Notes: generated from the letters alone by a model not told the origin. A stretch of 64,000 nucleotides of DNA from Candidatus Parcubacteria bacterium (GCA_046050355.1 JBJOPW010000004.1:1-64000), one strand, 5' to 3'. Positions 13,356-42,889 are shown, counted from the first letter of the stretch. Numbers and translations are program-made.

Positions 13356-13781
13356 TCAGGCTACTTGATGAGCCTCGATCTCAGCTTTGACCTTAGCAAG
13401 ACGGTCGCTGTCCCATCCCTTGATGTCGAGTTGTGATAAAACCCAAACGACGTCAAGGAGTTCGAAGAAGGAATGGATCGTGTATCCTTCATGACGAAGA
13501 TGAGTGACCTCTCCTTGCTGCCGATCCATGAAGACGAAGTGGGTCATCGCCTTCACATCATAACCGTCGTTCGATTCGAGACGTTCGAGGGCTTCGAGTA
13601 ACGAGCCGCCACTGGTCACCACGTTCTCGATGGTGAAATAGATGTGATGTTCCGGGTTGGGACGGCCGTTGACCCAGTAGCCACGTTGTCCGGTGGCACC
13701 GTGAGTCTCCTTGAGCTTTTCGCGCATAATGCGATAGCCTAGCCGATGTCGACCGAACGTTCGAGGATCATAGTGGGTCAC
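13356..13781 (-). pseudogene. pyrE: 3' half of interrupted orotate phosphoribosyltransferase-like gene
   Basis: PRPP-binding-like loop TIENVVTSGGS and DRQQG motif; joins 42881-43219 in frame through the shared VTH codons. Confidence 0.8.
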
Positions 13782-15198
13782 CATCGGGGGCACTCAAGTC
13801 ATTCTTGAGGTCCTGAAGCCAACTCTGTGGCTCCAAACATAACTCTCCTGGACTGAGGGTTCGGTACGAGAAGAGATTTTGCACCATCTGACGTTTTTCA
13901 TCGCCTATCGCCACTTTGTATTGCAGATCAAAGGTCGTTGCGAGTTCGAGGAAGTTCTGTACGTCCTGTTCTGTCGGAAGGTTTTCGGTCAGTCGTGAGC
14001 GTTCTTGGGTGAGGTCAGCGAGTTCAAGTGTCATGTTCTGCTTCTTCGCCTCGAAGTCTGGCTTTGAGATTGTGCCATCGATCAGTAGATCTGTAAGTCG
14101 ATCCAAGCGCTGCTTCTGTTGTTCGATACGCAGGTCCAGCGACCGTCTGGTGCTGTTGAGGTCCGGATCATGGATGAACTCTAGTAACGACGCACGGAGT
14201 ACCTCTGCCTCTTCCTGCCTGAGTGCAACTGTCCGGAAACACTTCTCGACGGCCTCTTCGATCTTGTCTTCTCGGATGGTTGTCGTTGGGCACGATGCTG
14301 TCTGGCATCGATAGTACACTCTGCCTTTCTGCCTCTCTGGAGAAAGTGGGCCGTTACACAACGCACAGCGAAAAAGCCCGCGATAGCGATGGTTGTGGCG
14401 GGTGACCTTTTTTCCCGCCTTACCGACTTTCACGTCTTGGATGTTTCGATACGTGCTCACAGTGATGAGCGGCTCGTGTATGCCGTCGTACGTCGCGCCG
14501 GTTTGCCTGATGCGCATGACCCCGCAGTAGAATGGGTTCTGCAGCATGGTTTCGATCCCATGCAATGAAAGACTTCTGCCCCGGTGGTTCTTTAGGCCGA
14601 TGCGCACGGCTTCTCGGTGCAAGCTGCGAAGTGAGTGCTGTCCTGAGGCGTATTTCTCCAGCAGGTCACGGACCAACGGAGCTTTCTCCGGGCAAGGAGT
14701 CTTTGGTTTTCCTCGCCCGTTGTCGAGATATCCCAAGGGTGCTTGGAAGGGATAGAGGCCCTGGCGCAGCCGACCGTCGATGCCCTTCTTCGTCTCTTCC
14801 CGGAGGTTTCGGATGTAGTCAGCTGCGATCACGGCTTGGATGTCCGCAGTTAGTCGCCCTCCGCGAGAACGGAAGTCGAGACTCTCAGTCGCGAAGTATA
14901 CACCAACTCCCTTGTCGGAGAGTTCGCTGATGATCGCCCAATCCTTGAGATTCCGTGCGGACCTATCGATCTTGTGGATGATGAGGCCAGAAGCTTTTCC
15001 ACGCTCCAACAATTTGAGCATCTTCGTGAACACTGGGCGGCCAGACTTCGCCGCCGTTTCCTTCTCTTCAAACCAGTCAGTAACTTGGAGATTGTTACGA
15101 CTCGCAAATGCCGTAATAGCGTCCTTCTGAGCTTCGAGAGAAACGCCTTCTCCCTGCTTCTGGGTGGAAACCCGTATGTATCCAAAACACGACTTCAT
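13768..15198 (-). CDS. Large serine recombinase
   Basis: YIRVST catalytic Ser, DRSAR motif, recombinase domain, CALC/YYRC zinc ribbon, coiled coil. Confidence 0.96.
   Translation of the reverse strand: MKSCFGYIRVSTQKQGEGVSLEAQKDAITAFASRNNLQVTDWFEEKETAAKSGRPVFTKMLKLLERGKASGLIIHKIDRSARNLKDWAIISELSDKGVGVYFATESLDFRSRGGRLTADIQAVIAADYIRNLREETKKGIDGRLRQGLYPFQAPLGYLDNGRGKPKTPCPEKAPLVRDLLEKYASGQHSLRSLHREAVRIGLKNHRGRSLSLHGIETMLQNPFYCGVMRIRQTGATYDGIHEPLITVSTYRNIQDVKVGKAGKKVTRHNHRYRGLFRCALCNGPLSPERQKGRVYYRCQTASCPTTTIREDKIEEAVEKCFRTVALRQEEAEVLRASLLEFIHDPDLNSTRRSLDLRIEQQKQRLDRLTDLLIDGTISKPDFEAKKQNMTLELADLTQERSRLTENLPTEQDVQNFLELATTFDLQYKVAIGDEKRQMVQNLFSYRTLSPGELCLEPQSWLQDLKNDLSAPDGDPL
13773..13781. repeat. 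att core, left junction
   Basis: GTGGGTCAC, identical to 42881-42889 and 38348-38356. Confidence 0.9.
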
Positions 15199-15341
15199 AG
15201 TTCGGTGTTGCTATCGTCGGATTCTATCAGATCTTTATTTTTTGGCGAATCACGCCACGGCCAAGATTGATCGCATAGCATCCGCAAGTAGATCTTCTTG
15301 CAGTGTTCAAGATGCGCTCTCAGAAATTCGTCGTGGTTCAT
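15195..15341 (-). CDS. 48-aa small protein coupled to recombinase
   Basis: MNHDEFLRAHLEHCKKIYLRMLCDQSWPWRDSP...; GGAGG upstream; its TGA overlaps the recombinase ATG (ATGA); below the ORF-track cutoff. Confidence 0.6.
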   Translation of the reverse strand: MNHDEFLRAHLEHCKKIYLRMLCDQSWPWRDSPKNKDLIESDDSNTEL

Positions 15342-15404
15342 CGAACCAGTCTATAACCTCCAATTTCTTCGAATAGTCCGCGAGGTTTCGAGCTATTGCC
15401 TCTT

Positions 15405-16559
15405 TCAATGCCGTGTCACCAGAGAGAACGGCTTCGAACGTTCACCTGAAACCATGATTTGTGCATAAGCATGATGGTTCGGAAGTCCAATGAGGTCCGC
15501 TGGAGATACCCCTTGCATTTGAGCGGCAATCACCGGGGCATCCAGTGCTCCGACACGAAATGCAAGCGTGCTGCCGACGTTCCCCATGATGGCCTCGAAC
15601 ACCGTTCTGTCTGCCTGGAGGGTGTGTTGATGAGCCAACGTGATAGCCACACCGTACTTCCGTACCTCGGAAAGCATTCCTGCGAAGGCGGTCGTCGTAA
15701 ATGAGTGGAACTCGTCCACGTATAGCATGAAGGGTCTCCGGCCACCTTCCGCGACACTCTGTCTGCTGAAGGCTGCGTTCATAACGGCTGATACGATCAG
15801 CCCTCCAAGAACGTTTGCGATGTCGCCACCGATTGCACCCTTGGCGAGGTTCACTACAAGAATTTCACCGTTGTCCATCAAGCGCCTGAACCGAATGGGC
15901 TCAACAGGTTCGCAGATCGCCGAGCGAACGACAGGATGAGACAGGAACGCCCCTAGCTTGTTGGCAATCGGGGCAACGCCATCGACGGCGTTCTTGTAGT
16001 TCATCGTCGGATATTCGACTTCCCAAAAGTAACGCACCTGAGGATCGGTTATGCGGTGAAGCACTCGCTTCTGAAATTCTCGCTCGATCAGCAACCTGAC
16101 GACTTCGCGGATGTCTGCCTGCGGCTGCTCAAGCAACGCCAGAATTGAGTAACGAAGTAGGTGCTCCATGCGGGCACCCCAAGCATCCTCCCATTGACGT
16201 CTGAGTGCTTCGATGAGGCCAGAGCATACGAGTGGGCGCAACGATGCCTGGACGGGACGAATAGGGTTGTAGCCCAGACCGCAGTTTGGGTCGGCAAGGT
16301 TCCAGAAGTGGAGCGGACGCTGCACAGTCGCTGATAGGCTCAGGGCGAGATCGCCGTGCGGGTCGATCACACAGAAACCGCGTCCCTCGGCAACATCTGC
16401 CTCAGCGAGGTTCCTGATCAGGGTAGACTTCCCGGTTCCGGTCTGACCGACAACGTACAGGTGAAGAAGCCGGTCCGAGAGTGCGATGGATACTGTTTTC
16501 CCGTCCTGGCGACCGGAAAGGAGCCCAAGTACGGACGCATTAGACTGTGTGTTGTTCAC
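15405..16559 (-). CDS. Type IV secretion coupling protein-like ATPase (VirD4/TrwB-like, soluble)
   Basis: GQTGTGKS Walker A, IDPHGD, YVDEFH Walker B and EVRKYG motifs. Confidence 0.88.
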   Translation of the reverse strand: MNNTQSNASVLGLLSGRQDGKTVSIALSDRLLHLYVVGQTGTGKSTLIRNLAEADVAEGRGFCVIDPHGDLALSLSATVQRPLHFWNLADPNCGLGYNPIRPVQASLRPLVCSGLIEALRRQWEDAWGARMEHLLRYSILALLEQPQADIREVVRLLIEREFQKRVLHRITDPQVRYFWEVEYPTMNYKNAVDGVAPIANKLGAFLSHPVVRSAICEPVEPIRFRRLMDNGEILVVNLAKGAIGGDIANVLGGLIVSAVMNAAFSRQSVAEGGRRPFMLYVDEFHSFTTTAFAGMLSEVRKYGVAITLAHQHTLQADRTVFEAIMGNVGSTLAFRVGALDAPVIAAQMQGVSPADLIGLPNHHAYAQIMVSGERSKPFSLVTRH

Positions 16560-16779
16560 GCTGTCAGTCTGCCGGACTAAGCGCGAGATCCAAAGACTAT
16601 GGAAGCTCGGAGATCGACCTGTTCGGAAGCCCTGAGATGTGACTTAGCAAATTTCCAAGGACTTTTTGGAGGGCAAGCGGGCCCCGATAATGAGGGCAGA
16701 CCGATCTTTTGCTCATCGCCTTTCGTAGGGTCTGCCTGAAATCACTTCGGGCAGCGACCCAAGCGGAAGGAGATGAAGA

Positions 16780-17313
16780 ATGGGCTACGCTGTAGAAGAC
16801 GACGAACTGGGTGGTATCGGCTATACCCCGACCTGCAAGAGTTGCGGTTCCGAACATGTATCCAAGGATGCTTGGGCCTGTTGGAATCCGGCTACTGGGA
16901 TGTGGGAACTCGAAACCACTTTCGATCATGAGTACTGTCATGTGTGCGAGGCCGACACGTCGTTCACCTGGCAGCGAGTGGAGAGCGTTCCATCAAGGCG
17001 CGTTCGGGCCTTGAATGACAGGTTCCGCAAGGAAGGCGGAAAGGAACGGTCGGTGGTCGTCACCTCCGGCGTTCTGGCGCTCGGGACAGACTTCCTTGTC
17101 GCCGCGCTCGTAGCCATCCGGGACTTCGACAGCTTCACTGACGACAATGACCCCTGGGGCGAGCATGACTACGGGAAGGTCACCATCCACGGCCAGCCCG
17201 TCTTCTGGAAGATCGACTACTACGATCTCAACCTCGCGGGACGCTCATCCAATCCCGCCAACGACGGCGAGACGCATCGCGTACTGACCGTCATGTTGCC
17301 AAGCGAGTACTAA
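16780..17313 (+). CDS. Zn-ribbon + DUF3768 domain protein
   Basis: CKSC/CHVC at N-terminus; LNDRFR, NDPWGEHDYG, FWKIDYYD and RVLTVMLPSEY motifs. Confidence 0.85.
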   Translation: MGYAVEDDELGGIGYTPTCKSCGSEHVSKDAWACWNPATGMWELETTFDHEYCHVCEADTSFTWQRVESVPSRRVRALNDRFRKEGGKERSVVVTSGVLALGTDFLVAALVAIRDFDSFTDDNDPWGEHDYGKVTIHGQPVFWKIDYYDLNLAGRSSNPANDGETHRVLTVMLPSEY

Positions 17314-17317
17314 GATC

Positions 17318-17344
17318 CCGCCTCCCACTGTGGAGGCGGTTTTC
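17318..17344 (+). terminator. Rho-independent terminator
   Basis: CCGCCTCC-loop-GGAGGCGG followed by a T run. Confidence 0.65.
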
Positions 17345-17706
17345 GCAATGGCATGTCCGAGACGTCAAGACCCTGAACGTGAAAGAGCACGGCCATGAGT
17401 TCGTCTTCACGAATAGACTGTGACCAGTGCTCAGCCGGTTCTTGTCGCTGTCTAGCCAAACGAGCGGGAATTTCGATATCCTGATACTCGGAACGATAGA
17501 AGGTAGCCTTGGCGTTCGTAGCAAGGTCGGACTGGCGTCAGCCGGAAGGGTGGCAACCCTTCCGGGGTGAAGCGCTGGTACGAGGCCTTGTCGACGACCG
17601 ATCACCAAGGCCACCAAACATGCTGAACCGGCACATTGCGCCTTCTAGGTGCTGAGGGAGCATCGACATACACTGCTTGTATTATCAGCAGTAAGTCACA
17701 AACCAA

Positions 17707-18057
17707 ATGTCCACCGAGTTTGCCCTGGACCTGCGCCTCGCGCGCCGGAAAGCAGGCTTCACGCAGCGCGACTGCGCACATTTATTAGCGATCTCTCCGT
17801 CGGTCTTGTCACAGATGGAAGGCGGCAAGCGCCTGCCGAGCATTCTTCAGATCTGCATGCTGTCCGTCATCTACGGTCGATCCTTCGAAAGCCTTTTTGG
17901 CTTTCTTCTTGACGAGGCTCGTGCCCAGCTCCGGACGCGCATTTTGAGCTTGCCTGAAGATGTCCGTCACTTCGCCGGGACTCGCAACCGCGACTACAGC
18001 ATCGACCGACTGGCGCAGCGCTTAGCAGATGAGCAAGACGTACATGGCGGCGCTTAG
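17707..18057 (+). CDS. XRE-family HTH regulator
   Basis: LRLARRKAGFTQRDCAHLLAISPSVLSQMEGGKRLP. Confidence 0.85.
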   Translation: MSTEFALDLRLARRKAGFTQRDCAHLLAISPSVLSQMEGGKRLPSILQICMLSVIYGRSFESLFGFLLDEARAQLRTRILSLPEDVRHFAGTRNRDYSIDRLAQRLADEQDVHGGA

Positions 18058-18526
18058 GATACTCTCCATTGCGGCAGCCACTGGTCGGATAGCGTACGTC
18101 TATTTGATCGGCGATCGGCTGATGGACTGGCGCATTTCAGACAAGGCTAGTTCGTCTGCGCAAGACGCGAGAGAAGCATCGGCCCATTGGATCGAGACGC
18201 TCCGTCCGGACGTCGTTGTTACGGAGATTCCGGTGTCGAAGACTCGAAAGGGCGACAACACCAGACAGTTGATCGAAGCAATGGCTAAAGTGGCCGAAGA
18301 AGCGGATGTACTGGACGTCAAAGTCACCCGAGAGCAATCCTATGCGAACAAGTACGAAGAGGCCGCTGCATTAGCAGAGAGCTATCCGGAGCTGCTGCCG
18401 TGGGTCCCACGCAAGCGCCGCTTCTTCGACAACGAGCACCGCAATACCGTGCTCTTTGAGGCTTTGGCCCTAGCGCAAGCAATCGTTCGGTCGCCTGCAA
18501 CTACCCTTGGGGCCGCGATGGGATAG
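18029..18526 (+). CDS. Hypothetical protein, possible RNase H/RuvC-like fold
   Basis: RILSIAAATGRIAYV...RPDVVVTE pattern; overlaps the HTH gene. Confidence 0.65.
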   Translation: MSKTYMAALRILSIAAATGRIAYVYLIGDRLMDWRISDKASSSAQDAREASAHWIETLRPDVVVTEIPVSKTRKGDNTRQLIEAMAKVAEEADVLDVKVTREQSYANKYEEAAALAESYPELLPWVPRKRRFFDNEHRNTVLFEALALAQAIVRSPATTLGAAMG

Positions 18527-18601
18527 TTCACAAAGACGAAATTGTTGACAGGCTGCAACATGGTGTTGCAGCTTTTTTGTACTGGTATTTAGGAGGTACC
18601 C

Positions 18602-19156
18602 ATGCGCTCATATCATGCCGCTCGCGCGGTTTTTTCTCTCTTCTCTGGGTTGGCCTGGACCGTGATCCTCATCGGAATTCTTGCTGTGTTTCTAGGCATT
18701 GCACGGGGACGCAGCATAAACCCGTACAATCCAGACCTAGGAGCTGCCGTGGTCGCAATACCCGGAGTCTTGGCTGTCGTATTTGGCTTGGTTATGCTGG
18801 TAATGGCTCAGATGGGCCGCGCCGGGGTTGATACCGCAGAGTATTCTCAGCAGATGCTGCAGGCATCGCGGGATCACATGGAAGTCTCACGACAACTGGT
18901 TCGCCAAGGCGAAAAACTCGAACAGGGCTATGCTGCTCTTGCGGCGAAACTCAGCATACCCCCGTCGGTTTCGTATGATGGTCGCATTTCCACAGCGGAA
19001 GCGTCTTCTTCTGCGGCACCCGCAGCTACACCGCTCTCCGCCACTGGCGAAGGTACGACGCAAAAGGTGGGCTACAGCGACCGGCTCCAGATCGAACAGG
19101 GTATCCCGATGACCACCCTCCAGGGTGCTGACGCGAAGTCTACCGCGTCGTCCTAA
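18602..19156 (+). CDS. Hypothetical two-TM membrane protein
   Basis: AGGAGG RBS; two hydrophobic helices. Confidence 0.75.
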   Translation: MRSYHAARAVFSLFSGLAWTVILIGILAVFLGIARGRSINPYNPDLGAAVVAIPGVLAVVFGLVMLVMAQMGRAGVDTAEYSQQMLQASRDHMEVSRQLVRQGEKLEQGYAALAAKLSIPPSVSYDGRISTAEASSSAAPAATPLSATGEGTTQKVGYSDRLQIEQGIPMTTLQGADAKSTASS

Positions 19157-19329
19157 TCCCCACACCGGAACACATCCTCTATGGGGACTCTGTATGGGGG
19201 TACATACCGACACATCCTTGGCCATAGCTTCTCAACTTCGTCCCTCAGATCATCCTGACATATGCCACCTTCGTGGCATAGGCTGGTCGGCACCTAGGCC
19301 GACCAGCCGCACCATTACCTGGAGCTTCG

Positions 19330-19689
19330 ATGCGAATTTCGATCTCTCACCATGATGTCCGTAAGGGACTATTGTTCAGGAAGACTATGCACGAAGTCCA
19401 CTTGTCGGTGGCCTTCACCCACGAAGAAAAGCAGATTGTGCGCCAGCGCCGTCTAGGGGATCAGGTCATCCTGCAGCGCCGTCCGGCGAACGCCAAAGTT
19501 GATGATCGCGACAGTAAGTTCGTCCTGCGACTAGGTGACCTGCTTGACGGTCGTACCGACCGCTTTCTCCTCGCAACACCATCTGCAGCAAAAATCTACG
19601 AGGAAGACCTGATCCGAATGTTGGCCCAAGTGAAGCTTTGGATTTCAGACAATGCAGAGACCGCAGGTCGGACGGTGATTGAACTTTGA
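19330..19689 (+). CDS. Hypothetical protein
   Basis: GGAG RBS; stop overlaps start of the downstream ATPase. Confidence 0.7.
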   Translation: MRISISHHDVRKGLLFRKTMHEVHLSVAFTHEEKQIVRQRRLGDQVILQRRPANAKVDDRDSKFVLRLGDLLDGRTDRFLLATPSAAKIYEEDLIRMLAQVKLWISDNAETAGRTVIEL

Positions 19690-21770
19690 GCACAGAACGC
19701 GAGATCAAGGAGTTCTTCAACTCGACGCTCGGATTGGGCGTCCTTTTTGTTTTCCTCCTCCTCGGCGTGGTAGTTGCACCGATATTCCTCATAGGGGCAG
19801 CGGTCTATGTAGTGGGTCGCCTTTATCTTGAAAACCCCGCCAGACTGGAGCGGGTAGCGAGACGAGAGACAGAGATCCTATACAATCACGCGCTCGCCGG
19901 GCAAGTTATCTTGAGCCGTGATGATATTGATGAAATCTTGTCAGCTAGCTGGCCGGAAGAATTGCCATTTCCAACGCGTGCACAGCTGCTTGATCTTGGC
20001 TATGAGCTTTTCCGAGACGAGGGACTTAGTCCAGACATTCCACCAGTTCCGGCACTTTGCAACACGGTGGAAGGGGCAAGATACCGCGACCTGCTTGCGA
20101 GACTAGGACAAGCGCGAACGGATCGTGTGATGGTTACCGCCGCTCTTTCGCAAATTGGAGAAAGTCTTTCGGTCGTCGCGCGGGCAATTCCAAACCTTGA
20201 TGGAGATGTACTTGTTTCTGTCTCTCAGTTCTTGGAACCGGTTGGTCCGACCATCGAAGAGATCATTGCGCCCTTTTATAGGGAGACTGGCTATATCCAT
20301 TTCAAGGCTCTGAGGGAACGCCTCGATCAGAACTTGGAACGGACCCATCGGACAAACCCGGTCTTTCCCCGCGACTACAAGGGTACTGATGCGGTTGAAA
20401 CCTACTTGGCTGGTACCCGGCTCAAAGCTCTCTTCAGCATCAAGACGCCCTTTGAGATCCCCGAAGCTTCACGCTTCGAGCATGTGCACATGGTTGCGGG
20501 AACCGGTCACGGGAAGACTCAGACGCTCCAATACTTCATCGCTAAAGACCTCCTCGACGTCGCGCGGCGTGACAAGTCCATTGTCGTCATTGACAGTCAG
20601 GGCGACCTGATCAGAACGATCCTCGCAGCCAAGCACCTTCCCCCCGAGCGCATCGTCTTGATCGATCCGGAGGACATTGCGTTCCCGGTAGCTCTCAACT
20701 TGTTTTCGGTCGGCCAAGAACGTCTCACGGGCTACAGCGCGGTCGATCAGGAACGGCTCACCAACTCGATCCTGGAGCTCTATGACTTCGTGCTGGGGTC
20801 ACTCCTTGGGTCGGGGATGACGTCGAAGCAGAACGTCATCTTCCGCTATGTCACCAGGCTCATGCTTCATATACCGGACGCTACGATCCACACCCTTCGG
20901 GAGCTCATGGAGCCTGGAGGGACGGTGAAGTATCAAGACGCTATCGACCGGCTGGATGGAACCGCGCGCAAGTTTTTCGCCAGCGAGTTTGACGGCAAGG
21001 AGTTCACGAACACAAAAGCGCAGGTCCTACGTCGCCTCTATGGTGTGCTGGAGAACCGTACCTTCGAACGGATGTTCTCGCACCCAACTTCACGCTTCGA
21101 CATGTTCACCGAGATGAACGCGGGGAAGCTCATTCTGATCAACACGGCGAAATCTCTGCTGAAAGAACAAGGCACGGAGATCTTCGGCCGCTTCTTCATC
21201 GCCCTGATCGCTCAGGCCGCGCAAGAACGTGCCACCCTGCCAGAGTACGACCGGCTCCCGTGTATGGTTTTCGTGGATGAGGCCCAGGACTACTTCGACG
21301 AAAACATCGGGATCATCCTCAGTCAGGCACGCAAGTATCGGGTCGGCATGACACTGGCACACCAATATCTTGGACAACTGTCTTCCTCGCTTCAGGAGGG
21401 CGTTGAGGCGAACACGGCAGTCAAACTTGCAGGCGGTGTCTCGGCTCGGGACTCCCGTGCTCTTGCAGGACAAATGGGGGCTGACCCCGACATGATCGCC
21501 CGACAGCCAAAGGGAACGTTTGCTGCCTTTATCCGTGGCGTCACAGAGAAAGCAGTCCCGATCTCGTTCCCGTTCTTTGTCCTAGAGAAATCAGAGAAGA
21601 CGACAGACCAAGAGCGGGCCGAAATCCGGACTTTCAGCCGCAATGCCTATGCGCACGCCTGGGATCGTCCCGAAGAAGACCAACAGCCGACGGAAGCGAA
21701 CAGCGACATTCCTTCCGGAGGTTCAAGAGACGACCGCATAGACCCACTTTCTCCTTCCACAGAGCTATGA
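19686..21770 (+). CDS. Membrane-anchored coupling-protein-like ATPase (TraD/VirD4-like)
   Basis: N-terminal TM; GTGHGKT, IDSQGD, FVDEAQ and QARKY motifs. Confidence 0.87.
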   Translation: MSTEREIKEFFNSTLGLGVLFVFLLLGVVVAPIFLIGAAVYVVGRLYLENPARLERVARRETEILYNHALAGQVILSRDDIDEILSASWPEELPFPTRAQLLDLGYELFRDEGLSPDIPPVPALCNTVEGARYRDLLARLGQARTDRVMVTAALSQIGESLSVVARAIPNLDGDVLVSVSQFLEPVGPTIEEIIAPFYRETGYIHFKALRERLDQNLERTHRTNPVFPRDYKGTDAVETYLAGTRLKALFSIKTPFEIPEASRFEHVHMVAGTGHGKTQTLQYFIAKDLLDVARRDKSIVVIDSQGDLIRTILAAKHLPPERIVLIDPEDIAFPVALNLFSVGQERLTGYSAVDQERLTNSILELYDFVLGSLLGSGMTSKQNVIFRYVTRLMLHIPDATIHTLRELMEPGGTVKYQDAIDRLDGTARKFFASEFDGKEFTNTKAQVLRRLYGVLENRTFERMFSHPTSRFDMFTEMNAGKLILINTAKSLLKEQGTEIFGRFFIALIAQAAQERATLPEYDRLPCMVFVDEAQDYFDENIGIILSQARKYRVGMTLAHQYLGQLSSSLQEGVEANTAVKLAGGVSARDSRALAGQMGADPDMIARQPKGTFAAFIRGVTEKAVPISFPFFVLEKSEKTTDQERAEIRTFSRNAYAHAWDRPEEDQQPTEANSDIPSGGSRDDRIDPLSPSTEL

Positions 21771-21788
21771 TTTTGCTAGCATTTCCTT

Positions 21789-22670: not shown

Positions 22671-22824
22671 GCCTAACTGGGGAACTTCGCCCAAGCAGAA
22701 GTTCCACTGTCTAGGGCAGGATGCGGCACGACCGTATTCTGAGCCTGGACCGTTCCTTATCAGAGCTATGCCGCAAGGCCTGCTCACTAGGCATGTGTCC
22801 TTTCCCAGAAACGTGGAGATACCC

Positions 22825-23538: not shown

Positions 23539-23543
23539 AGGAA

Positions 23544-33586: not shown

Positions 33587-33599
33587 GCGGGAGGATTCG

Positions 33600-34775: not shown

Positions 34776-35537
34776 TCAAAGCCTGATTATTGTATCCTGA
34801 ACCTGCAGAGCGCTCATCGCCGAGCAGAACTCAGTCAAGCCAAAGTCTCGATTAAATCGGTCATTAGACTCATGAACCAAAAGCGTCTTCGCCGCGAAGA
34901 CAGCGCCCGAATCACGTGCGAGTACTATAGCTCTCAAGTACTTCCGGTCCAAATCTCCAGAAATGCTACCAGACACAACCCGAAGATAACTGGTGTCTGC
35001 TCCTACAACATAGACACGATCTGCCTGGCAAAAGTAATAACCCTGATGATCGGGGTCAACGCTTTTCCGAGCAACTTGGAATGGAGAAACGTCATCATCA
35101 CCGATCGATCTGTAAGCGTCAAAGAACTTATCGAAGTTCTTGCGCTTAATGAAATTCATGAACCGGAATAGACCACAGTACTCAAAGAAAATTAACCCTC
35201 CAGAAACTAAGTCCCCAAACCCATCCGACCGGTAATAACGAAATGCACCAAGCAGAGTCCGTGCCTGCTGAATAGACTGACTATCTATCCCCAGACTCTC
35301 GCTAAGCGCTGAGTACGTTCTAAATTGCCTGTTTGGAACTCTCAAACACACGTCAACTTTTGCAAGAGACGAAAGTTCAACTTCTTCCCCCCTATAGATT
35401 TTTTCAAGTGTCGCAATGTCTGGCGCACGCGAGCCAAAGACCTTCTTGAACGCCCGAGCAGTCTTGAAGCCGTCCGCTACCGCTCTAGCCAAAACTTCAT
35501 CACCGACCAACGTTCGAGCGCCTGACTTCAACACCAC
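34776..35537 (-). CDS. Putative HTH regulator with C-terminal beta-rich domain, divergent from radical SAM operon
   Basis: 253-aa ORF; XRE-like helix pattern DIATLEKIYRGEEVELSSLAKV. Confidence 0.6.
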   Translation of the reverse strand: MVLKSGARTLVGDEVLARAVADGFKTARAFKKVFGSRAPDIATLEKIYRGEEVELSSLAKVDVCLRVPNRQFRTYSALSESLGIDSQSIQQARTLLGAFRYYRSDGFGDLVSGGLIFFEYCGLFRFMNFIKRKNFDKFFDAYRSIGDDDVSPFQVARKSVDPDHQGYYFCQADRVYVVGADTSYLRVVSGSISGDLDRKYLRAIVLARDSGAVFAAKTLLVHESNDRFNRDFGLTEFCSAMSALQVQDTIIRL

Positions 35538-35742
35538 TACCCACTCCCGAATCTAACGATTCCTCATCAAATCGCAAGATTCTCATACCAGTCCCGGCAC
35601 TGCAAGATCAAGTCGCACGAGCGAGGTAACGATCCCAACAAACAACTGAAAATCGGTGTTTTACCAGTGACTCGTAGGCGTGCGACCATGGAGCCGCAGA
35701 TGAGAGCAACTGATCTGCGCGAACGTAGACGGGAGGAACAGA

Positions 35743-37071
35743 ATGCGCATCGCAATGGTTTACCCAGAAGTCTTCGACCTTGCACGGTTCAATGAAAAGC
35801 GGAAAGAGTTTCCGCCTTTTGGGGTAATGTACCTATCCGCCATGATGGAGCAGGCAGGGCACGTTGTCCAAGTATTTGCCATATCCTTCGAAACGAGTGC
35901 GATCGATTTCCGAGGCTTCGATGCAGTAGGATACTCCATCCCATCATCAGCAACTTTTGGTATAACAAAGAAGGTACGGTTTGCTAGTAAGTACGACGAG
36001 GGGGCACTGATCATGGCTGGTGGAGTACACGCAAACCTTTACCCACTGCAGACTCTGGATGAATTGGAACCGGACGTTGTTGGCATTGGTGAGTGCGAAC
36101 AGACCATACTCGACATCTTGGAGAGGGGTAAGAATGCGGATTTTGGTAACATCCTCGGAGTCGCCTTTAAGAAGAACGGGGAAGCAGTGAAGACACCTCC
36201 TCGTCGAGTAGATAAAGACATTGACTGGCTTCCACTTCCATCCCGACACCTCCTGCCTCGGTCAGACATTGTGATGAGCAATCGACTATCTAACACGGAC
36301 ATCGAAATGGCCCACGTCATGTTCACACGTGGATGCCCGTTTCCGTGCAGGTTCTGTGCAGTTGCGCAAACTAAGATACAGTATCGCTCAGGCGCCAGCG
36401 CAAGACGTGAAATAGTTCACCTAATGGAAACTTATGGAATAGGTGGTTTCGCCATTGTCGATGACAATTTCATCGTTGACAAGCGTAAGGTTCATGACGT
36501 AGCCGAAAGCATCCAAGACCTCGGTGTAAAATGGTCGGCTCTTTCCCGAGTCGACACCATTGACAAAGAACTGCTCACGGCAATGGCCTCATCCGGATGC
36601 ATCGAAATTAAGTTTGGAATGGAGTCAGGGAGTCAGAGAATTCTTGATGCAATGCAGAAAAACACGACCCCGGAACAGATCCTAGAGGCCGCAAGGCTTT
36701 CATATGAAGCCGGCATCAAGGCCAAGTTCTTTATTGTTCATGGTTATCCTGGTGAAAACATGGAGACCACAGCCGAGACAATCGCCCTCCTTGATAGAGC
36801 TAAAAGATATGTAGATCGAGTTTCGCTCTTCAGGTTTGCCCCATTGCCGGGGACATATGTCTACAATCACCCTGAAGAGTTCGGCCTCCGGGGAACGGAC
36901 CGGCAAGCAGACTGGGATGGCAACTGGGATAAATATCATATTTATCACAATGCGTACCACTGGTGGGGAACGGATGATCAATTTGAAGAGCTGAACAGGG
37001 CGCACACGGAGATCTCCAACTATATTGACGAAACTTGGCCAGCGACTTTTCAACCGCCCCAAAATGTGTAA
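35743..37071 (+). CDS. Cobalamin-binding radical SAM enzyme
   Basis: PPFGVMYL and GGVHA B12-binding domain; RGCPFPCRFC, DDNF and GMESGS motifs; GGAGG RBS. Confidence 0.92.
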   Translation: MRIAMVYPEVFDLARFNEKRKEFPPFGVMYLSAMMEQAGHVVQVFAISFETSAIDFRGFDAVGYSIPSSATFGITKKVRFASKYDEGALIMAGGVHANLYPLQTLDELEPDVVGIGECEQTILDILERGKNADFGNILGVAFKKNGEAVKTPPRRVDKDIDWLPLPSRHLLPRSDIVMSNRLSNTDIEMAHVMFTRGCPFPCRFCAVAQTKIQYRSGASARREIVHLMETYGIGGFAIVDDNFIVDKRKVHDVAESIQDLGVKWSALSRVDTIDKELLTAMASSGCIEIKFGMESGSQRILDAMQKNTTPEQILEAARLSYEAGIKAKFFIVHGYPGENMETTAETIALLDRAKRYVDRVSLFRFAPLPGTYVYNHPEEFGLRGTDRQADWDGNWDKYHIYHNAYHWWGTDDQFEELNRAHTEISNYIDETWPATFQPPQNV

Positions 37072-37081
37072 AACTTAGAGA

Positions 37082-37828
37082 ATGGAGAGGATTGGAACTG
37101 TAGAAGCGGTGTTCCTACGCAAGGCACATGGCCGTGCTGTTGAGGAATCAACAGTCCTCAACTTAGTGGCTGATTTCGGGATCGTAGGGGATATCAACTT
37201 CTCGGCTTCGTCGCCTCGCCATTTGCTACTTAAGAGGATTGGACGTCCAGGCGATTGGACGGACAACGCCGGTTACTTCAATGAAAACGTTTCTTTCACT
37301 TCTGAAAGTCTGAATTCGCTTCGTCCGGGAGACATCGTAAGAGTTGGCTCCGCAACTCTCCTCGTTCGTTCAAAAAATGAGCGGTGCAACATTTTTGCGC
37401 CAGAGGTCCGCGTGGCACGAGGCCTTCATTGTGTTTGCATAGACGCCGGATCCATTCGTCGTTCGGATGACATCATAAAGCTCGGTAGCGTTTCTATCGC
37501 AGAGGACAGTCGCGCGGCACTATTGGTAACGGGCCTCAGGGCTGTTCCGCTCGGAAGAGTGGTGACTTTTGAAGATGCATGCACTATGATTGGTGGCAGC
37601 CGCCCACACTTGCGGATCATTCCAAGACTGCTAAAGATTGCAATTACTTTGCATCCAACTGGGGTTCCATTTCACAGGTTAGTCAAATCTAAGGGTGATC
37701 TAATTGACAACATTGTCACTGATCAGATGCTCCTCCTGGCGGCGGAAGGTATATCGACTTCAAACGGAAGAACTGTAAATCTTCAGTTCCGTCATGTTTT
37801 CGGGAGAAACCCATTTTGCGAAATGTAA
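37082..37828 (+). CDS. MOSC domain + alkyltransferase-like (ATL/MGMT) fusion
   Basis: GIVGD, ENV, GDIVRVG, ERC and RG (MOSC); VPLGRVVTF...PFHRLV (ATL, no catalytic Cys). Confidence 0.75.
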   Translation: MERIGTVEAVFLRKAHGRAVEESTVLNLVADFGIVGDINFSASSPRHLLLKRIGRPGDWTDNAGYFNENVSFTSESLNSLRPGDIVRVGSATLLVRSKNERCNIFAPEVRVARGLHCVCIDAGSIRRSDDIIKLGSVSIAEDSRAALLVTGLRAVPLGRVVTFEDACTMIGGSRPHLRIIPRLLKIAITLHPTGVPFHRLVKSKGDLIDNIVTDQMLLLAAEGISTSNGRTVNLQFRHVFGRNPFCEM

Positions 37829-38232
37829 GCTGCTTTGTCTCGATGGCAATTGAAGCTCGTGAAGCACTTAGTGAAGAGCTCTCCGCAATTAAGAGTGTGT
37901 GCAGTAGATTTGGTGTTAGAGCCCATGTCTTCCTAGATGAATACTCATTTGAGAAAGGCAAAGAATCCCAAATGATGGCGGAGGTCGTTTCGTGTATTAA
38001 TGGCTGTGATTTCTTGATTGCTGAAGTAAGCAAGAAGGCGATTGGGGTGGGGTGTGAGGTTGGCATCGCTGCAGCATTGGGAAAGCCGGTGATCTATTGT
38101 CGGCAGGCAGGGAGTCCAGCTTCGCTGACGGTTGGCGGACTGGCAAGTTTTACTCTGACTTATAGTGAAGCCAACGAACTTGCGCGGAAACTAAGTTTCG
38201 TATTAGAGAACAGGTTCTTCGAGTCCGACTAG
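37816..38232 (+). CDS. Nucleoside 2-deoxyribosyltransferase-like protein
   Basis: CDFLIAEVSKKAIGVGCEVGIAAALGKPVI motif. Confidence 0.8.
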   Translation: MRNVSCFVSMAIEAREALSEELSAIKSVCSRFGVRAHVFLDEYSFEKGKESQMMAEVVSCINGCDFLIAEVSKKAIGVGCEVGIAAALGKPVIYCRQAGSPASLTVGGLASFTLTYSEANELARKLSFVLENRFFESD

Positions 38233-38327: not shown

Positions 38328-38357
38328 AGTTTGAGAAGTGTTTCGAAGTGGGTCACA
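38328..38357. repeat. Internal second copy of the element's right att half-site
   Basis: AGTTTGAGAAGTGTTTCGAAGTGGGTCACA matches 42861-42890 at 27/30 positions. Confidence 0.85.
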
Positions 38358-38663: not shown

Positions 38664-38906
38664 ATGTCCGAGAAATACAAATTCAAAGTTGAGAATGAAA
38701 CCTACGAGTGGGGCGATGCAACCATCACCGCAGCGGAAGTACGCGGGGTCGGTCCAGGGATTCCTGATAGCATGGATCTCTTTGTGAAGCTTCCCGGAAA
38801 GCCTGCGCGCTTAGTGTCGGATCCAGGCGAAGTCTTTGATCTCTCGAAGCCGGGAATCGAGAAATTCTTTGCGCAGAACTCATCGTCGGAAGCGGGCGCC
38901 AACTAA
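38664..38906 (+). CDS. Ubiquitin-like (multiubiquitin-domain) protein
   Basis: YKFKVEN..YEW...IT...DLSKPGIEKF beta-grasp pattern; tail EAGAN. Confidence 0.82.
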   Translation: MSEKYKFKVENETYEWGDATITAAEVRGVGPGIPDSMDLFVKLPGKPARLVSDPGEVFDLSKPGIEKFFAQNSSSEAGAN

Positions 38907-38908
38907 TT

Positions 38909-39316
38909 ATGCCGTTATTGTTCGAAGATGACTACGAGTACTTGAAAAGTACTGGGCTAAAGTACGATGAGTACACGGACCAGCGCTTCTTGGTGGTCAG
39001 GGCTTACCCCGTTCCGGAGGGTAAGTACATCTTCGAAGGACAACCGGTTCGGACGGTCGATGTCCTGTCCATTATCCCGCCAAACTACAACACCGAAGGC
39101 TGCGACATGTTCTGGGTGCACCCAGCGATATCGCGTGCTGATGGAAAGCCCATTCCGGCAACTGGCGGCGACGACAGAGTCTTCGACAACACGACCTTCG
39201 TTCGTTGGTCCAGGCACTGGCCTGCCGGTCGATGGAGACCCAAGGTTGATACAATAGAGACCATATTGAGCCGTATCGACTGGGCCTTGCATAACCCAGA
39301 CCCTGCTGAAGCATGA
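38909..39316 (+). CDS. Prokaryotic E2-like protein (Prok-E2_E type)
   Basis: IPPNY, DMFWVHP and RWSRHW motifs. Confidence 0.82.
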   Translation: MPLLFEDDYEYLKSTGLKYDEYTDQRFLVVRAYPVPEGKYIFEGQPVRTVDVLSIIPPNYNTEGCDMFWVHPAISRADGKPIPATGGDDRVFDNTTFVRWSRHWPAGRWRPKVDTIETILSRIDWALHNPDPAEA

Positions 39317-40764
39317 GCCAACCCCGCATCACCCTCCTGCAATCACATCGAGAGCGCTTGGAGCGTTGGTTACCGTCTCATCCAGAGCATCACGAACGTG
39401 CCGCTGTAGTACTGTTCCGCTCGTTTGCACGAGAGGTACTGGAACAGACTCAATCAGAACGGCTCGTCTCGGTCGACGTGATCGAAATGACTGATGACTG
39501 GCTCGTGGAGAGCTCAGTCATCAGTGTCAAAGTCAACCTTCGAAAGCTTGTGGATCTGTATTTCCGCTGTGAGCAGGAGGGCTTACACTTAGGCTTCGTA
39601 CATAGTCACCCACTTGGTGCTGACGCCTTCTCGGGTCAGGACGATCAGAACGAACAAAACATCTTGCGGGGCTACGCTGGCTGCAATGGACGAGACTCAA
39701 GATTGGTGGCTCTTGTCTACGTCGACGGCGAGTGGATTGGTCGGGTGCGTTATGCGACCAAGCCAACCGAGAGCTCGCCTGTTCGTCACATACTTACACT
39801 GGGGGAAACCCTTGCTGTACACCATTTGACCAACCCGGAGGGTGATCTGGCTACACTGGAGCGACAGGCGGCCGCTTTCGGTCGACCATTTAATCAAAAG
39901 CTTCAGTCTCTTAGAGTTGCAGTGGTTGGGTGCGGAGGTACCGGCTCACCAACTGCTACCCTTCTGGCTCGCGCAGGTGTCGGCGAACTTATTCTCATTG
40001 ATGGTGACAACCTAGAGGAAAGCAATCTCAACCGGGTTCGAGGCTTGCGGAGAGATGATGTCGGACACAACAAGGCAGAGAGGCTGTGTTCGTACATCCG
40101 CTCCTTATCCCTGCCAACATCCGTGTCGTTTGTCCCCAATTATCTTGAGGACAATCGGGCAGCTGTCGACGCACTTTCCTCAGCCGATGTCGTATTCGGC
40201 TGCACCGACACCGTGGCAAGTCGAGAACTCTTAAACGAGGCTCTGTACTATTATGGGTTTGTGCTCATTGATTGCGGACTGTCGGGAGAAGTTGCCAGCA
40301 CTGCTGATGGGAAACCAAGGCTCATTGAGCATCGCGGTCGCGTAAGCACCGTGCAGCCCGAAACTGGAGCTTGCCTGCGCTGCCAAGGGGTCGTCACAGA
40401 CAACAAACTGAGATACGAGAGAGCGGTCAACGAGAACCCAGAGCTCAAGAAGCTCGACGCCAAAACGCTGCTCCGCGAACATTATCTAGTTGGCGGAGGC
40501 GAAGCCGCTCCGGGGGTCGGACCGTTCACTAGCGCAACTGCCGATCTTGCTGTCTCCTCACTATTTGAACTCATTCATCCATACAGACAACTGGGCGGCG
40601 ATTTCCGTCCTGACAATATTTGGCAAGATTACTTGCATATGACTTATCACAGTAACGAGCCCCGAAACCTTTCTGCCGATTGTTATTGCTGTGGCACGCG
40701 CGCGATCCTACTGAAGCGTGAGCGTCAAGTTCTACTGGACAGACCGGCACTTGGTACGATTTGA
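39313..40764 (+). CDS. JAB peptidase-ThiF/E1 fusion
   Basis: E...HSHP...FSGQD JAB motif; VGCGGTGS, SNLNR, GCTD, CLRC and CYCC motifs. Confidence 0.9.
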   Translation: MSQPRITLLQSHRERLERWLPSHPEHHERAAVVLFRSFAREVLEQTQSERLVSVDVIEMTDDWLVESSVISVKVNLRKLVDLYFRCEQEGLHLGFVHSHPLGADAFSGQDDQNEQNILRGYAGCNGRDSRLVALVYVDGEWIGRVRYATKPTESSPVRHILTLGETLAVHHLTNPEGDLATLERQAAAFGRPFNQKLQSLRVAVVGCGGTGSPTATLLARAGVGELILIDGDNLEESNLNRVRGLRRDDVGHNKAERLCSYIRSLSLPTSVSFVPNYLEDNRAAVDALSSADVVFGCTDTVASRELLNEALYYYGFVLIDCGLSGEVASTADGKPRLIEHRGRVSTVQPETGACLRCQGVVTDNKLRYERAVNENPELKKLDAKTLLREHYLVGGGEAAPGVGPFTSATADLAVSSLFELIHPYRQLGGDFRPDNIWQDYLHMTYHSNEPRNLSADCYCCGTRAILLKRERQVLLDRPALGTI

Positions 40765-40765
40765 T

Positions 40766-41200
40766 ATGAATCTAGGCATTCCCAAGATATTTCTAAACTT
40801 CTGGAAGAAAGCACGGCTTCCAGAAATCCAAGAACCTACCAATCATGTGAGGCACTATCAAGCTGCCCTGATCTTGGAAAGAACACCAAGCAACTCGGCA
40901 ATCGGAGATCGCGATTTTGTATTCGTGATCTATGAGACCGTTCCACGGTGGGCACTGTTTCGATGCCCCTGCGGCTGTAGCGAAGTCATCAGCCTACCCC
41001 TAGCTGCTCCACACAATCCTCGATGGGCCGTCTATGTCGACGAGGATGGCTTCGCTTCTCTGTATCCATCCGTTTGGCGCAACACTGGCTGCATGAGTCA
41101 CTTTGTAATTCGCTCAGGATGTGTATTCTGGGCGAATAAGAGCGGGGTCAGCCCATTTGAAGCCAGCCCAAATTTCTATAAGCCTCGCATTCCCAAGTAG
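40766..41200 (+). CDS. DUF6527 family protein
   Basis: CPCGC, SLYPSVW and GCMSHFVIR motifs. Confidence 0.85.
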   Translation: MNLGIPKIFLNFWKKARLPEIQEPTNHVRHYQAALILERTPSNSAIGDRDFVFVIYETVPRWALFRCPCGCSEVISLPLAAPHNPRWAVYVDEDGFASLYPSVWRNTGCMSHFVIRSGCVFWANKSGVSPFEASPNFYKPRIPK

Positions 41201-41214
41201 AAGGGACGTGAGCT

Positions 41215-42636
41215 CTAGTATTCCCAGCGAACAAAATAGCCAGACCGTCCATAGCAGTCGTATCCGCGCTTGTCCTTATGTGCCTTGAGCATTGTCCCGG
41301 AGCTCTTCCTCTTGAACTCTTTTCCGCAGTAGGTACATGCGATCACCTGAAGGGGTCCACCAGAGTAGGTTGAAGGCCTGCGATTCACTCGACCCGCCGA
41401 ACTTCCTCCTCGCTTTGTCTGGGCACCAAGCCGACCGCCTCCTCCAAAGTAGGAATTTTCTGGCAGCTCACCTGCTTTTGACAGTTCGACCTCGAAGCGC
41501 GGTTCGAACTTTTCTTCAAGTATCTGTGGCTTCTCAACTTTTGGATTAACCAGGGACTTGATTCCGGTTGACCCTGAGGCACCTCCAGTTCGATCCCACA
41601 CATAGAAGTATTCGCGCGGAGACCCGTCCGATGGACGTTTGTAGCTTAGAGCGTAAGGTTCGACGACCCTCTCGTATCCGTCATAGGTTAGTCGGATAAG
41701 CCGTTGTTGAGACCCGGCTTCCAAGAAGACGTTACGAAGTTCTGCCGGAAAGAAGGCATCGCTTATGCGATCTGCCATACCGCTCGTTTCGAATACACTA
41801 TCGACGAACCGCGTGTACGCTTCTGTCGCGGTGTCGAAGTCTATTTTGCTTGCTGCCGGGCAAACTATGTATTTCTCCCATGCCGCCCGGAAGAAGGCCA
41901 TGGGGAGACCAAGGAGTATTTGCCGAGCTGAACCCGGACTTCGTTCAAAGATGGTCTTCTTGAGAAAGACGCTTGCAATTGTTGATCGATCAAGGTCAAT
42001 CCGATCATCAAAGAACGCAGCGTAAACTAGATCGTAGAGATCATGGGAGTGACGACGTTGCAGCAAGCATTTGAGCTTAGATGCCATGCCCTCTTCGAGA
42101 GCAACACATCTAAGATTTACTCTGCAGACATCTGAATCCGAATATGGATGAATAAGTGGAACCGTGCTCACTGGAAGATACAAGCGGTCGAACTCTGTCA
42201 CATCCATCCGAACTGAAATTTCCAGCGCGCTTTTCTGGCCATAGAAATCTTCGAAGAAGACCTTTCCCTTGTAGATTTTTCTGTCGGTGTTTTTGCCGAG
42301 ATTGGCCCGTGCGGCTTCTTTGAAAGAGCTTCTCTCACTTACAAACTTGATACCCGATACAGCTTGAGCCATCTTGCAGCTACGTTCAATTTGAGCAGTC
42401 AGTTCATCCAAGTCAACTGCACGTTCAGTTGAGAAATCCAGGTCAGAGGAGAACCTGGTGTTCGGAAAGTACGCTTTTCGGAAGCAGTTTCCGCCCTTTA
42501 GGATGAGAAGGTCACTGAGATACTCATTTTGGTATATTGCAAACAGGAGCCAGCCGAAGACGTAGTCACGCTGAACATTCGAGGTATTGATCTCGAATTC
42601 AGCAGATTTCTGGTCGATTTCATCTCTCTCGATCAT
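41215..42636 (-). CDS. AbiEii-type nucleotidyltransferase fused to WYL-like and Zn-finger domains
   Basis: LKGGNC, RFSSDLDF and K...HDLYDL (NTase); RVVEPYAL...YFYVWD (WYL-like); CTYC...H...C. Confidence 0.85.
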   Translation of the reverse strand: MIERDEIDQKSAEFEINTSNVQRDYVFGWLLFAIYQNEYLSDLLILKGGNCFRKAYFPNTRFSSDLDFSTERAVDLDELTAQIERSCKMAQAVSGIKFVSERSSFKEAARANLGKNTDRKIYKGKVFFEDFYGQKSALEISVRMDVTEFDRLYLPVSTVPLIHPYSDSDVCRVNLRCVALEEGMASKLKCLLQRRHSHDLYDLVYAAFFDDRIDLDRSTIASVFLKKTIFERSPGSARQILLGLPMAFFRAAWEKYIVCPAASKIDFDTATEAYTRFVDSVFETSGMADRISDAFFPAELRNVFLEAGSQQRLIRLTYDGYERVVEPYALSYKRPSDGSPREYFYVWDRTGGASGSTGIKSLVNPKVEKPQILEEKFEPRFEVELSKAGELPENSYFGGGGRLGAQTKRGGSSAGRVNRRPSTYSGGPLQVIACTYCGKEFKRKSSGTMLKAHKDKRGYDCYGRSGYFVRWEY

Positions 42637-42860
42637 GTGACTACTCTACACCAAATCCCAAGCTACGGCACCTTAAGGCGATGATGACGGTTTGGCCAAG
42701 GAACACAACCCGTATGGCACCTCTATGCTGCATCTGCTGTGTCTTGAGGCTTTTGATACTTCAAATTGTACTGCCACTGCGGGATCTTATTTGGAGTACA
42801 CGCTGGTCTTTTAGGACAGAAGGTTAGAAGGTGGCTCAGGGACGTCTTCATCTCCTTTAG

Positions 42861-42889
42861 AGTTCGAGAAGTGTTCCGATGTGGGTCAC
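42861..42889. repeat. att site, right junction
   Basis: Core GTGGGTCAC at 42881-42889. Confidence 0.9.

Follow-up and report, generated by a model that had tools for sequence, protein, structure and literature searches.

A large-serine-recombinase element, probably of a Rhodobacterales family, inserted in an OPRT-like gene of a Kaiserbacteria-like chromosome

A base-precise insertion in an OPRT-like gene

Analysis of a 64,000-nt stretch of a Candidatus Parcubacteria genome (GCA_046050355.1, JBJOPW010000004.1:1-64000; hereafter the window) revealed a 29.1-kb integrative element that splits a gene resembling OPRT. The reading that we favor, and to which we assign a probability of about 0.85, is that an element of a family from Rhodobacterales, Alphaproteobacteria of marine type, carrying its own serine recombinase, entered a Kaiserbacteria-like Patescibacteria cell and inserted in the OPRT-like gene. 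The initial annotation of this DNA had described an alphaproteobacterial-type integrative element in a chromosome of the candidate phyla radiation (CPR). This description was borne out by a backbone colinear with Rhodobacterales loci, the tree of one of the element ATPases, natural empty sites and a recombinase encoded at the left end, and the cross-phylum interpretation that went with it is supported.

The precise insertion is confirmed. The 9-mer GTGGGTCAC lies on the + strand at both element junctions, termed attL and attR (Table 1), with a third exact copy inside the element at 38348-38356; the mean in shuffled sequence was 0.43 copies per window, and three copies were reached in 1 of 100 shuffles. 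The internal copy falls within a 93-codon open reading frame (ORF) without a family and showed no sign of use. Two minus-strand ORFs of 145 codons each abut the outer copies: that at 42857-43294 ends in ...GFAASVTH followed by seven residues, IGTLLEL, and a stop, and that at 13356-13793 reads VPPMVTH and then YDPRTFG.... In-silico deletion of 13782-42889 (29,108 bp) produced one open frame of 276 codons, its only stop being the terminal one, and intact homologues cross the junction gap-free (alignment A1). The joined element ends, read off both junctions, carry 6-bp arms, CCGATG and CATCGG, flanking an 8-bp spacer. The shared core, the restored frame and the inverted repeat at the rejoined ends had all been claimed in the initial annotation, and all three held.

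Natural counterparts of the restored gene were found. A protein search with the C-terminal half returned intact homologues of 215-248 aa, including P0008, which reads GFAASVTHYDPRTFGRH, exactly the restored peptide, and P0004, which is encoded in a genome of the same genus (G562). Contig C75 of that genome keeps the gene order of the window without the element, with genes for TopA, RelA, ParB, tRNA-Leu, a methyltransferase, the target and MiaA. Window 43286-42881 aligns with C75 positions 7593-7998 and window 13781-12393 with C75 positions 7990-9413, and the overlap of these alignments is exactly the 9 nt of the core. Two other genomes of the genus, G541 and G542, have the same gene order without the element, with an identical core in G542, bringing to three the same-genus genomes with an uninterrupted target gene and colinear flanks. 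In gene orientation, the empty sites read GTAACCCAC (G562), GTTACCCAC (G541) and GTGACCCAC (G542). The target gene is rare, being present in four of the 164 other family genomes, each of them from the same genus; a half-protein query did not find it in 40 relatives, and metagenome-contig scans for the intact gene with P0004 and P0008 as queries gave no match.

The target had been called pyrE-like, of which the likeness stands and the function is unproven. P0004 matches the human OPRT domain 2wns (E 7e-9, residues 37-236), and two target-gene homologues are named OPRT by JGI, but P0004 scores 20.5 bits against Pfam Pribosyltran, below the cut-off of 26.3; P0008 and P0012 gave no PRTase match. 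Because of the 2wns match and the sub-threshold Pfam score, we call the target an OPRT-like accessory gene, the likeness being fair.

A large serine recombinase at the left end

The element encodes a large serine recombinase at its left end, in agreement with the serine-integrase-type ends proposed in the initial annotation, whose gene list lacked this gene. The Resolvase (PF00239, 8e-32, residues 5-147), Recombinase (PF07508, 3.6e-10, residues 170-255) and Zn_ribbon_recom (PF13408, 1.7e-10, residues 273-319) domains all scored above the Pfam cut-offs, and NCBIfam matches of the XisF/Ccr type were sub-threshold, the best being XisF (110 bits vs a cut-off of 375). A YIRVSTQKQ block at residues 7-15, which we take to hold the catalytic serine, is common to nine relatives, and the protein is 53-61% identical to the large serine recombinases of seven Rhodobacterales loci. 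In a 14-row tree, the recombinase pairs with that of a Rhodobacterales metagenome-assembled genome (MAG; 89/98), on a branch that is not starred.

In the excised circle, the recombinase frame would continue for 51 codons into the right end of the element to give 527 aa, compared with 483-522 aa in relatives. The tail so added (DPHRNTSRT...) resembles that of a Rhodovulum recombinase (L022; score 44 vs a shuffle maximum of 33), whose gene contains the same core and one arm; comparison with the other 12 rows gave two borderline results and nothing for ten.

The CPR recombinases nearest to that of the element, at 50% (L008, G014:C15, 17056-18540) and 45% (L009, G034:C1, 18461-19965) identity, both end at tRNA genes: the G034 gene abuts the 3' end of tRNA-His, and the G014 gene, at the edge of its contig, overlaps the 3' end of a tRNA in antisense with its last codons. 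The neighbors of these two genes share no other element gene. Because of this location, and because attL holds the 11-mer GTGGGTCACCA, a tRNA end was considered as the usual target of the family, but the idea found no support; the 11-mer occurs 15 times in five Rhodobacterales genomes (reversed control, 7), with a tRNA at 0 of the 12 places examined. No tRNA adjoins the recombinase in six of the seven Rhodobacterales loci, the exception being L036, with tRNA-Phe 212 nt away.

Backbone genes and their Rhodobacterales relatives

Genomes, one per species, were scanned with the 694-aa HerA/FtsK/VirD4-superfamily ATPase of the element, and all 28 element ORFs were compared by tblastn with the loci found. 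The scan returned 25 loci at 60-77% identity, all 25 from outside the CPR; 19 carry Rhodobacterales genus or family names, and the remaining six are MAGs labeled 'Pseudomonadota' (three), Alphaproteobacteria, Rhizobiaceae and Acidobacteriota (one each). A 10-gene backbone is colinear with the Rhodobacterales loci at 44-78% amino acid identity. The Acidobacteriota-labeled locus (L039, JANMWO010000458.1) is a 14.5-kb contig with the same backbone (ATPase 70-71%, DUF3768 62%, helix-turn-helix regulator 69%); the contig either was misbinned or holds a further cross-phylum copy.

In a 23-row tree of the ATPase, the window falls inside the clade of all named alphaproteobacterial rows (98/97), with the homologue of a same-genus genome (G584) outside this clade and other CPR ATPases far away. 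Branching of element genes within CPR clades, which would speak against the transfer, is not seen for the ATPase; the recombinase clade also holds two CPR members. Three of the four genes that the initial annotation had singled out as alphaproteobacterial kept that appearance, namely those for the H-NS-family protein (family found in 0 of 150 other Patescibacteria), the P4-type integrase and the Replic_Relax protein, which belongs to the colinear backbone (identities in Table 1). DUF3768 is a weaker marker than assumed; it has Rhodobacterales-locus relatives, but the family also occurs in 5 of 150 other Patescibacteria.

Searches at the nucleotide level gave matches to the cargo half in 29 of 121 sampled Rhodobacterales genomes, with the H-NS and tyrosine integrase genes at 64-86%, and no match right of 34274 in these 121 genomes. 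In 200 Patescibacteria genomes, neither the backbone nor the right third had a nucleotide match, and short Res/SNF2 stretches matched in six. At the protein level, 299 of 301 Patescibacteria genomes held only their own chromosomal ATPases, at no more than 33% identity to that of the element (the tally includes one unpublished genome, G194, on which no other claim rests), and among 164 family genomes only G584 had a closer homologue, at 43.5%. In G584, homologues of both element ATPases (43.5% and 42%) lie side by side (C1:259808-263531; L063/L064) at a GC of 0.36-0.45, a gene pair that suggests a native, distant version of the transfer module in Patescibacteria.

Composition separates most of the element from its surroundings. 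Tetranucleotide z reaches 3.9-5.1 over 15-35 kb vs 0.6-1.6 over 35-45 kb (172 background windows). The ATPase gene has a GC of 0.555 and a third-position GC (GC3) of 0.63, inside the range of its Rhodobacterales homologues (0.53-0.675), compared with a mean GC3 of 0.505 for the flanks, and GC and GC3 of the backbone likewise lie in the Rhodobacterales range and above the flanks. Since the composition has not ameliorated and both halves of the target gene are undecayed, the event appears to be recent, as had been proposed. The element is apparently intact.

The host chromosome and assembly support

The chromosome is that of a Kaiserbacteria-like member of the Patescibacteria. The genome is small (939,894 bp in 17 contigs, 99.97% complete, GC ~0.475), and the flanks, which encode IF-2, ClpB, two T4SS_pilin proteins, MiaA, ParB, RelA/SpoT, TopA, DprA, SerRS and Dus, match the rest of it in composition (tetranucleotide z -0.7 to 0.3) and share their gene order with genomes of the same genus that measure 0.7-1.0 Mb. 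The nearest named relatives of SerRS are labeled Candidatus Parcubacteria (91%) and Candidatus Kaiserbacteria (86%). These findings bear out the CPR character attributed to the flanks. The T4SS_pilin-domain proteins (9379-10530 and 11044-12165, + strand) are encoded a few kb left of the insertion, between tRNA-Tyr and tRNA-Trp. The other region of the genome that stands out strongly in tetranucleotide composition (contig C1, 100-115 kb) was considered as an island and rejected, being instead a single ORF of 5,439 codons (L060, 3609-19928; G000:C1 ~101.6-117.9 kb). The same genome also holds a match to the Rfam LOOT RNA (L061, 286-404; G000:C11) at 89.6 bits vs a gathering score of 46.4.

Three freshwater-metagenome runs (X1, X2 and X3), all flagged as possible sources, contain the junction stretch; X1 and X2 are equal in size and may be one data set. 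A Logan contig of 20,728 nt from X1/X2 spans 9323-23999 across attL with 0 differences, and one of 7,563 nt from X3 spans 12450-20012 across attL with one single-nucleotide polymorphism, at 13448. Contig depth is single-copy-like and similar on flank and element (15.9-16.2 vs 18.4 in X1; 9.9-13.9 vs 12.8-13.4 in X3), so that the coverage check suggested in the initial annotation, made here with Logan contigs on the attL side, favors a true junction. No loose end lay at the junction among the 18 loose ends listed (39 others fall outside the listing), a result that concerns contigs only and has no bearing on excision. Runs X4-X11, with 5-9% of sampled words, were not used as evidence.

Alternative explanations and proposed course of events

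Several observations weigh against the favored reading. Contig bridging covers attL only; with X1 and X2 equal in size and the runs possibly from the source sample, independent support comes from at most two samples; and no excision product (attB or attP) was found among the contigs, which drop rare forms. The closest ATPase from a named genome is only 73-77% identical, and the closest relatives of all (97% and 81-87%), which make up the window's immediate subclade in the tree (P0133-P0139), lie on metagenome contigs of up to 66 kb, so that the immediate donor could be non-alphaproteobacterial. With homologues of the two ATPases at 42-44% in G584, a genome of the same genus, in DNA whose GC is CPR-like, and with DUF3768 in 5 of 150 Patescibacteria, related machinery is not foreign to the phylum. 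The recombinase tree gives no starred alphaproteobacterial placement, its clade of 10 including the CPR proteins of G014 and G034 (45-50%), and the element ends are not conserved, neither 39-40-nt end being found in the 25 loci at up to 9 substitutions. Finally, the right third (34.8-42.6 kb) is host-like in composition (z 0.6-1.6), has no nucleotide match in either group and is linked to alphaproteobacteria by plasmid matches of 35-49%.

Part of this evidence would also suit an element of alphaproteobacterial ancestry that circulates among Patescibacteria or other freshwater bacteria, in which case the immediate donor would not be alphaproteobacterial and the element would carry no host information. 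The subclade of nearest relatives, from metagenome contigs, sits on a 0.33 branch, and the 'Acidobacteriota' contig with the backbone at 70%, the two CPR recombinases, the G584 ATPases and the DUF3768 proteins of Patescibacteria point the same way. We nevertheless consider such circulation unlikely; no backbone match was found in 200 (nucleotide) or 300 (protein above 33%) genomes of the phylum, 164 family genomes yielded only the 43.5% homologue, backbone GC and GC3 lie in the Rhodobacterales and not the CPR range, and the G014 and G584 copies, at a CPR-like GC of 0.36-0.45, are unlike the element. That the internal P4-type tyrosine integrase made the insertion instead of the serine recombinase is very unlikely. 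Its gene is apparently complete and has an AlpA-family gene nearby, but it is removed from both ends of the element, by 20 kb on the left and 8 kb on the right, and neither a tRNA target nor a long direct repeat was seen there or in the surroundings of the gene. The core is short, the arms are inverted and the recombinase gene adjoins them, as expected of a serine integrase, and the recombinase frame crosses the rebuilt junction into a tail like a relative's. An artefact of assembly or binning, with alphaproteobacterial DNA misjoined into a Patescibacteria contig, might be suspected in a 17-contig metagenome-type assembly in which the element is the main compositional outlier apart from the giant gene; this explanation is close to refuted by two junctions on the same 9-mer that restore a conserved ORF, three natural empty sites, contigs from a second assembler running across attL in X1/X2 and, with a strain polymorphism, in X3, and equal depth on flank and element.

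We propose that an element of a Rhodobacterales-resident family entered the Kaiserbacteria-like cell as an integrative, probably mobilizable unit. It would have arrived as one piece, with the type III restriction-modification and SNF2 genes, AlpA, H-NS, the tyrosine integrase, the Bub-like operon and AbiEii. The recombinase would then have joined two sites with no more than the 9-bp core in common, an attP within the 3' end of its own gene and a site in the chromosome. Integration would have split the target gene and shortened the recombinase frame of 527 codons to 476. Large serine recombinases work independently of host factors, a property in keeping with a jump from one phylum to another. 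The window encodes DprA, making free-DNA uptake conceivable as the entry route; conjugation or mobilization from a host cell is equally open. The further suggestion of the initial annotation, transfer from host to epibiont with the element pointing to the host, is conjecture; we regard it as possible but doubtful that DNA passed from a Rhodobacterales-type host cell to a Kaiserbacteria-like epibiont, leaving the element as a recent and still mobile trace.

Gene content and cargo

The features of the element and its target are collected in Table 1. The coupling-type ATPase and the 694-aa ATPase were the only mating-machinery genes recognized when all backbone ORFs were scanned with Pfam and NCBIfam, and both are VirD4/FtsK/HerA-like; no VirB4, VirB6 or pilin family was found inside the element by these scans, which distant homologues could escape. 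As judged from its genes, the element lacks the complete mating-pore set of a self-transmissible integrative and conjugative element (ICE) and is probably mobilizable or minimally conjugative, with an integrase and the Replic_Relax protein as candidate relaxase; no oriT was identified. The true start of the DUF932-like ORF probably lies downstream of the listed one.

Table 1. Coordinates of the element, its target gene and its genes in the window
Feature	Position	Strand	Evidence and remarks
OPRT-like target gene, C-terminal half	13356-13793	-	Coding from the core downwards; first residues of listed ORF element-encoded; 86% to P0004 (G562)
Large serine recombinase, 476 aa as integrated	13768-15198	-	Last codons cross attL core, stop in flank
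attL core	13773-13781		9-bp identity with attR; holds presumed crossover; flank alignments to G562 overlap exactly here
Integrated element	13782-42880		29,099 bp between cores; GC ~0.55 vs ~0.475 for genome
VirD4/TraD-like coupling-type ATPase, 384 aa	15405-16559	-	Pfam AAA_22, TrwB_AAD_bind, TraG-D_C (weak); NCBIfam conju_CD1115/TraD sub-threshold; 55-63% in 10 Rhodobacterales loci
DUF3768 protein	16780-17313	+	Pfam 1.3e-30; 44-62% in 11 loci
Helix-turn-helix (HTH) regulator	17707-18057	+	Colinear in Rhodobacterales loci
Three small ORFs	18029-18526, 18602-19156, 19330-19689	+	All colinear in Rhodobacterales loci
HerA/FtsK/VirD4-superfamily ATPase, 694 aa	19686-21770	+	Pfam/NCBIfam scans; 25-locus scan; tree
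Replic_Relax protein, candidate relaxase or replication initiator	21789-22670	+	Pfam 2e-18; 44-55% in 24 of 25 loci
Conserved backbone ORF, DUF932-like lead	22582-23538	+	59-88% in 7 loci; atlas score 0.93, lead only
Cargo 1 (total)	23571-32560	-	Four genes, below
Cargo 1, type III restriction enzyme	23571-26564	-	Pfam/family scans
Cargo 1, type III methylase	26576-28438	-	Pfam/family scans
Cargo 1, DUF4391	28455-29219	-	Pfam/family scans
Cargo 1, SNF2 helicase	29216-32560	-	Pfam/family scans
Rfam RF02649 'Ruegeria trans44 sRNA' match	32528-32789	-	Full length; 174.6 bits vs gathering score 108
AlpA-family ORF, 61 aa	32574-32759	-	Phage_AlpA 6.3e-11; overlaps RF02649 match
H-NS-family protein	32942-33271	+	Pfam 6e-17; 58% to Maritimibacter L029 copy directly after Replic_Relax
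P4-type tyrosine integrase, second integrase	33549-34760	+	Pfam Arm-DNA-bind_3, Phage_int_M, Phage_integrase; 61% to Actibacterium copy; not at element end
Cargo 2: hypothetical 253 aa (-), B12-binding radical SAM, MOSC/DNA_binding_1-like, nucleoside 2-deoxyribosyltransferase-like	34776-38232		Lower GC
Cargo 3, Bub ('6E/DUF6527')-like operon: Multi_ubiq Ubl, Prok-E2_E, JAB-ThiF E1, DUF6527	38664-41200	+	Four domains in order
AbiEii-family nucleotidyltransferase, 473 aa	41215-42636	-	48-49% to Sinorhizobium and Sphingomonas plasmid copies
Right-end segment extending recombinase frame to 527 aa in circle	42726-42887	-	Antisense-encoded tail
OPRT-like target gene, N-terminal half	42857-43192	-	Last 7 residues and stop element-encoded; match 42872-43192; 81% to P0004
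attR core	42881-42889		9-bp identity with attL

The four genes of Cargo 1 are syntenic in one Rhodobacterales genome (G380) at 64-69% nucleotide identity, and the neighboring trans44/AlpA region recurs 16 times at 73-88% nucleotide identity, in 15 of the 121 Rhodobacterales genomes. The RF02649 family, named as a small RNA (sRNA), may really represent the transcript of an AlpA-like gene on Rhodobacterales mobile elements. A nested element around the tyrosine integrase was considered and rejected, there being no convincing direct or inverted repeats there, and so was a tRNA-targeting P4-type island, as no tRNA lies inside the element or at its ends and no suitable repeats were seen.

Cargo 2 had no nucleotide match in 121 Rhodobacterales or 200 Patescibacteria genomes. 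Its radical SAM, MOSC-like and deoxyribosyltransferase-like genes follow one another on the + strand (35743-38232, GC 0.48-0.49), and the trio may form a nucleoside or DNA-modification cassette. Plasmid copies from Celeribacter and Paracoccus share ~35% identity with the E1 of the Bub-like operon. We named the operon type after a preprint (bioRxiv 10.1101/2024.11.21.623953), which describes Type I Bub (6E.1) as having a ubiquitin-like (Ubl)-E2 fusion together with a JAB-E1 fusion and DUF6527; the element has the same domains in order, but its Ubl (80 aa) and E2 (135 aa) are unfused, being separate ORFs 2 nt apart.

Significance

Most Patescibacteria remain uncultured. Their genomes are minimal, and they are believed to live attached to other microbes, the partner being unknown for most lineages. 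An intact, base-precise element amounting to ~3% of such a genome would be a concrete lead to an ecological partner or at least to a frequent neighbor. It also suggests that host-factor-independent serine integrases can carry whole defense-laden elements across phyla into streamlined genomes, and it offers natural attP/attB pairs together with a recombinase whose length would switch with integration state. If the transfer did run from host to epibiont, it would name a host group for a lineage without known hosts and would indicate that a proteobacterial element with H-NS, restriction-modification, Bub and Abi defenses can establish, and perhaps be expressed, in a CPR cell; if the element were still mobile, its recombinase would regain full length only on excision.

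Comparison with known systems

The known systems that we take as most comparable are prophages and integrative elements served by large serine recombinases, among them those with phiC31/Bxb1-type integrases, SCCmec Ccr, XisF and the Tn4451/Tn5397-type elements. Like these, the element has a three-domain recombinase encoded beside the attachment site, a short shared core, an imperfect inverted repeat in attP and an insertion in a protein gene. It differs from them in its weak sequence similarity to the named recombinases (best XisF, as above), in a crossover within the recombinase's own 3' end, such that integration shortens the protein by 51 residues, and in its Patescibacteria host. A second comparison class comprises integrative mobilizable elements and actinomycete-type ICEs with FtsK-like translocases. 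The integrase, the candidate relaxase or replication protein, the FtsK/VirD4-superfamily ATPases and the lack of a full mating-pore set are shared with this class. No VirB4 or other pore gene was recognized, and the element is at most a candidate member of either type.

The closest likeness in gene order is to the Rhodobacterales family (L018, L021, L022, L025, L028, L029, L036 and others), with which the element shares the backbone identities given above and the order recombinase, coupling-type ATPase, DUF3768, HTH regulator, three small ORFs, 694-aa ATPase and Replic_Relax, followed by the DUF932-like ORF, the AlpA region or H-NS. In contrast to that family, the element has different cargo and a host of another phylum, its ends are not conserved, and none of those loci has the OPRT-like target. 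We came across neither an account of this element family nor a report of a Rhodobacterales-type element in Patescibacteria in the part of the literature covered.

According to one report, type IV systems of Patescibacteria usually lack relaxases (PMC12102498). Horizontal transfer and genomic islands in the phylum have already been described in general terms (mSystems 2025, PMC12455944). Like those islands, the element is of foreign origin, lies in a streamlined CPR genome and brings restriction-modification genes from a donor of another phylum; it differs from them in being delimited to the base, with the integrase and empty sites identified and a source family that can be named. Both integrative elements with large serine recombinases and inter-phylum transfer into the CPR are known kinds, and the element described here belongs to both.

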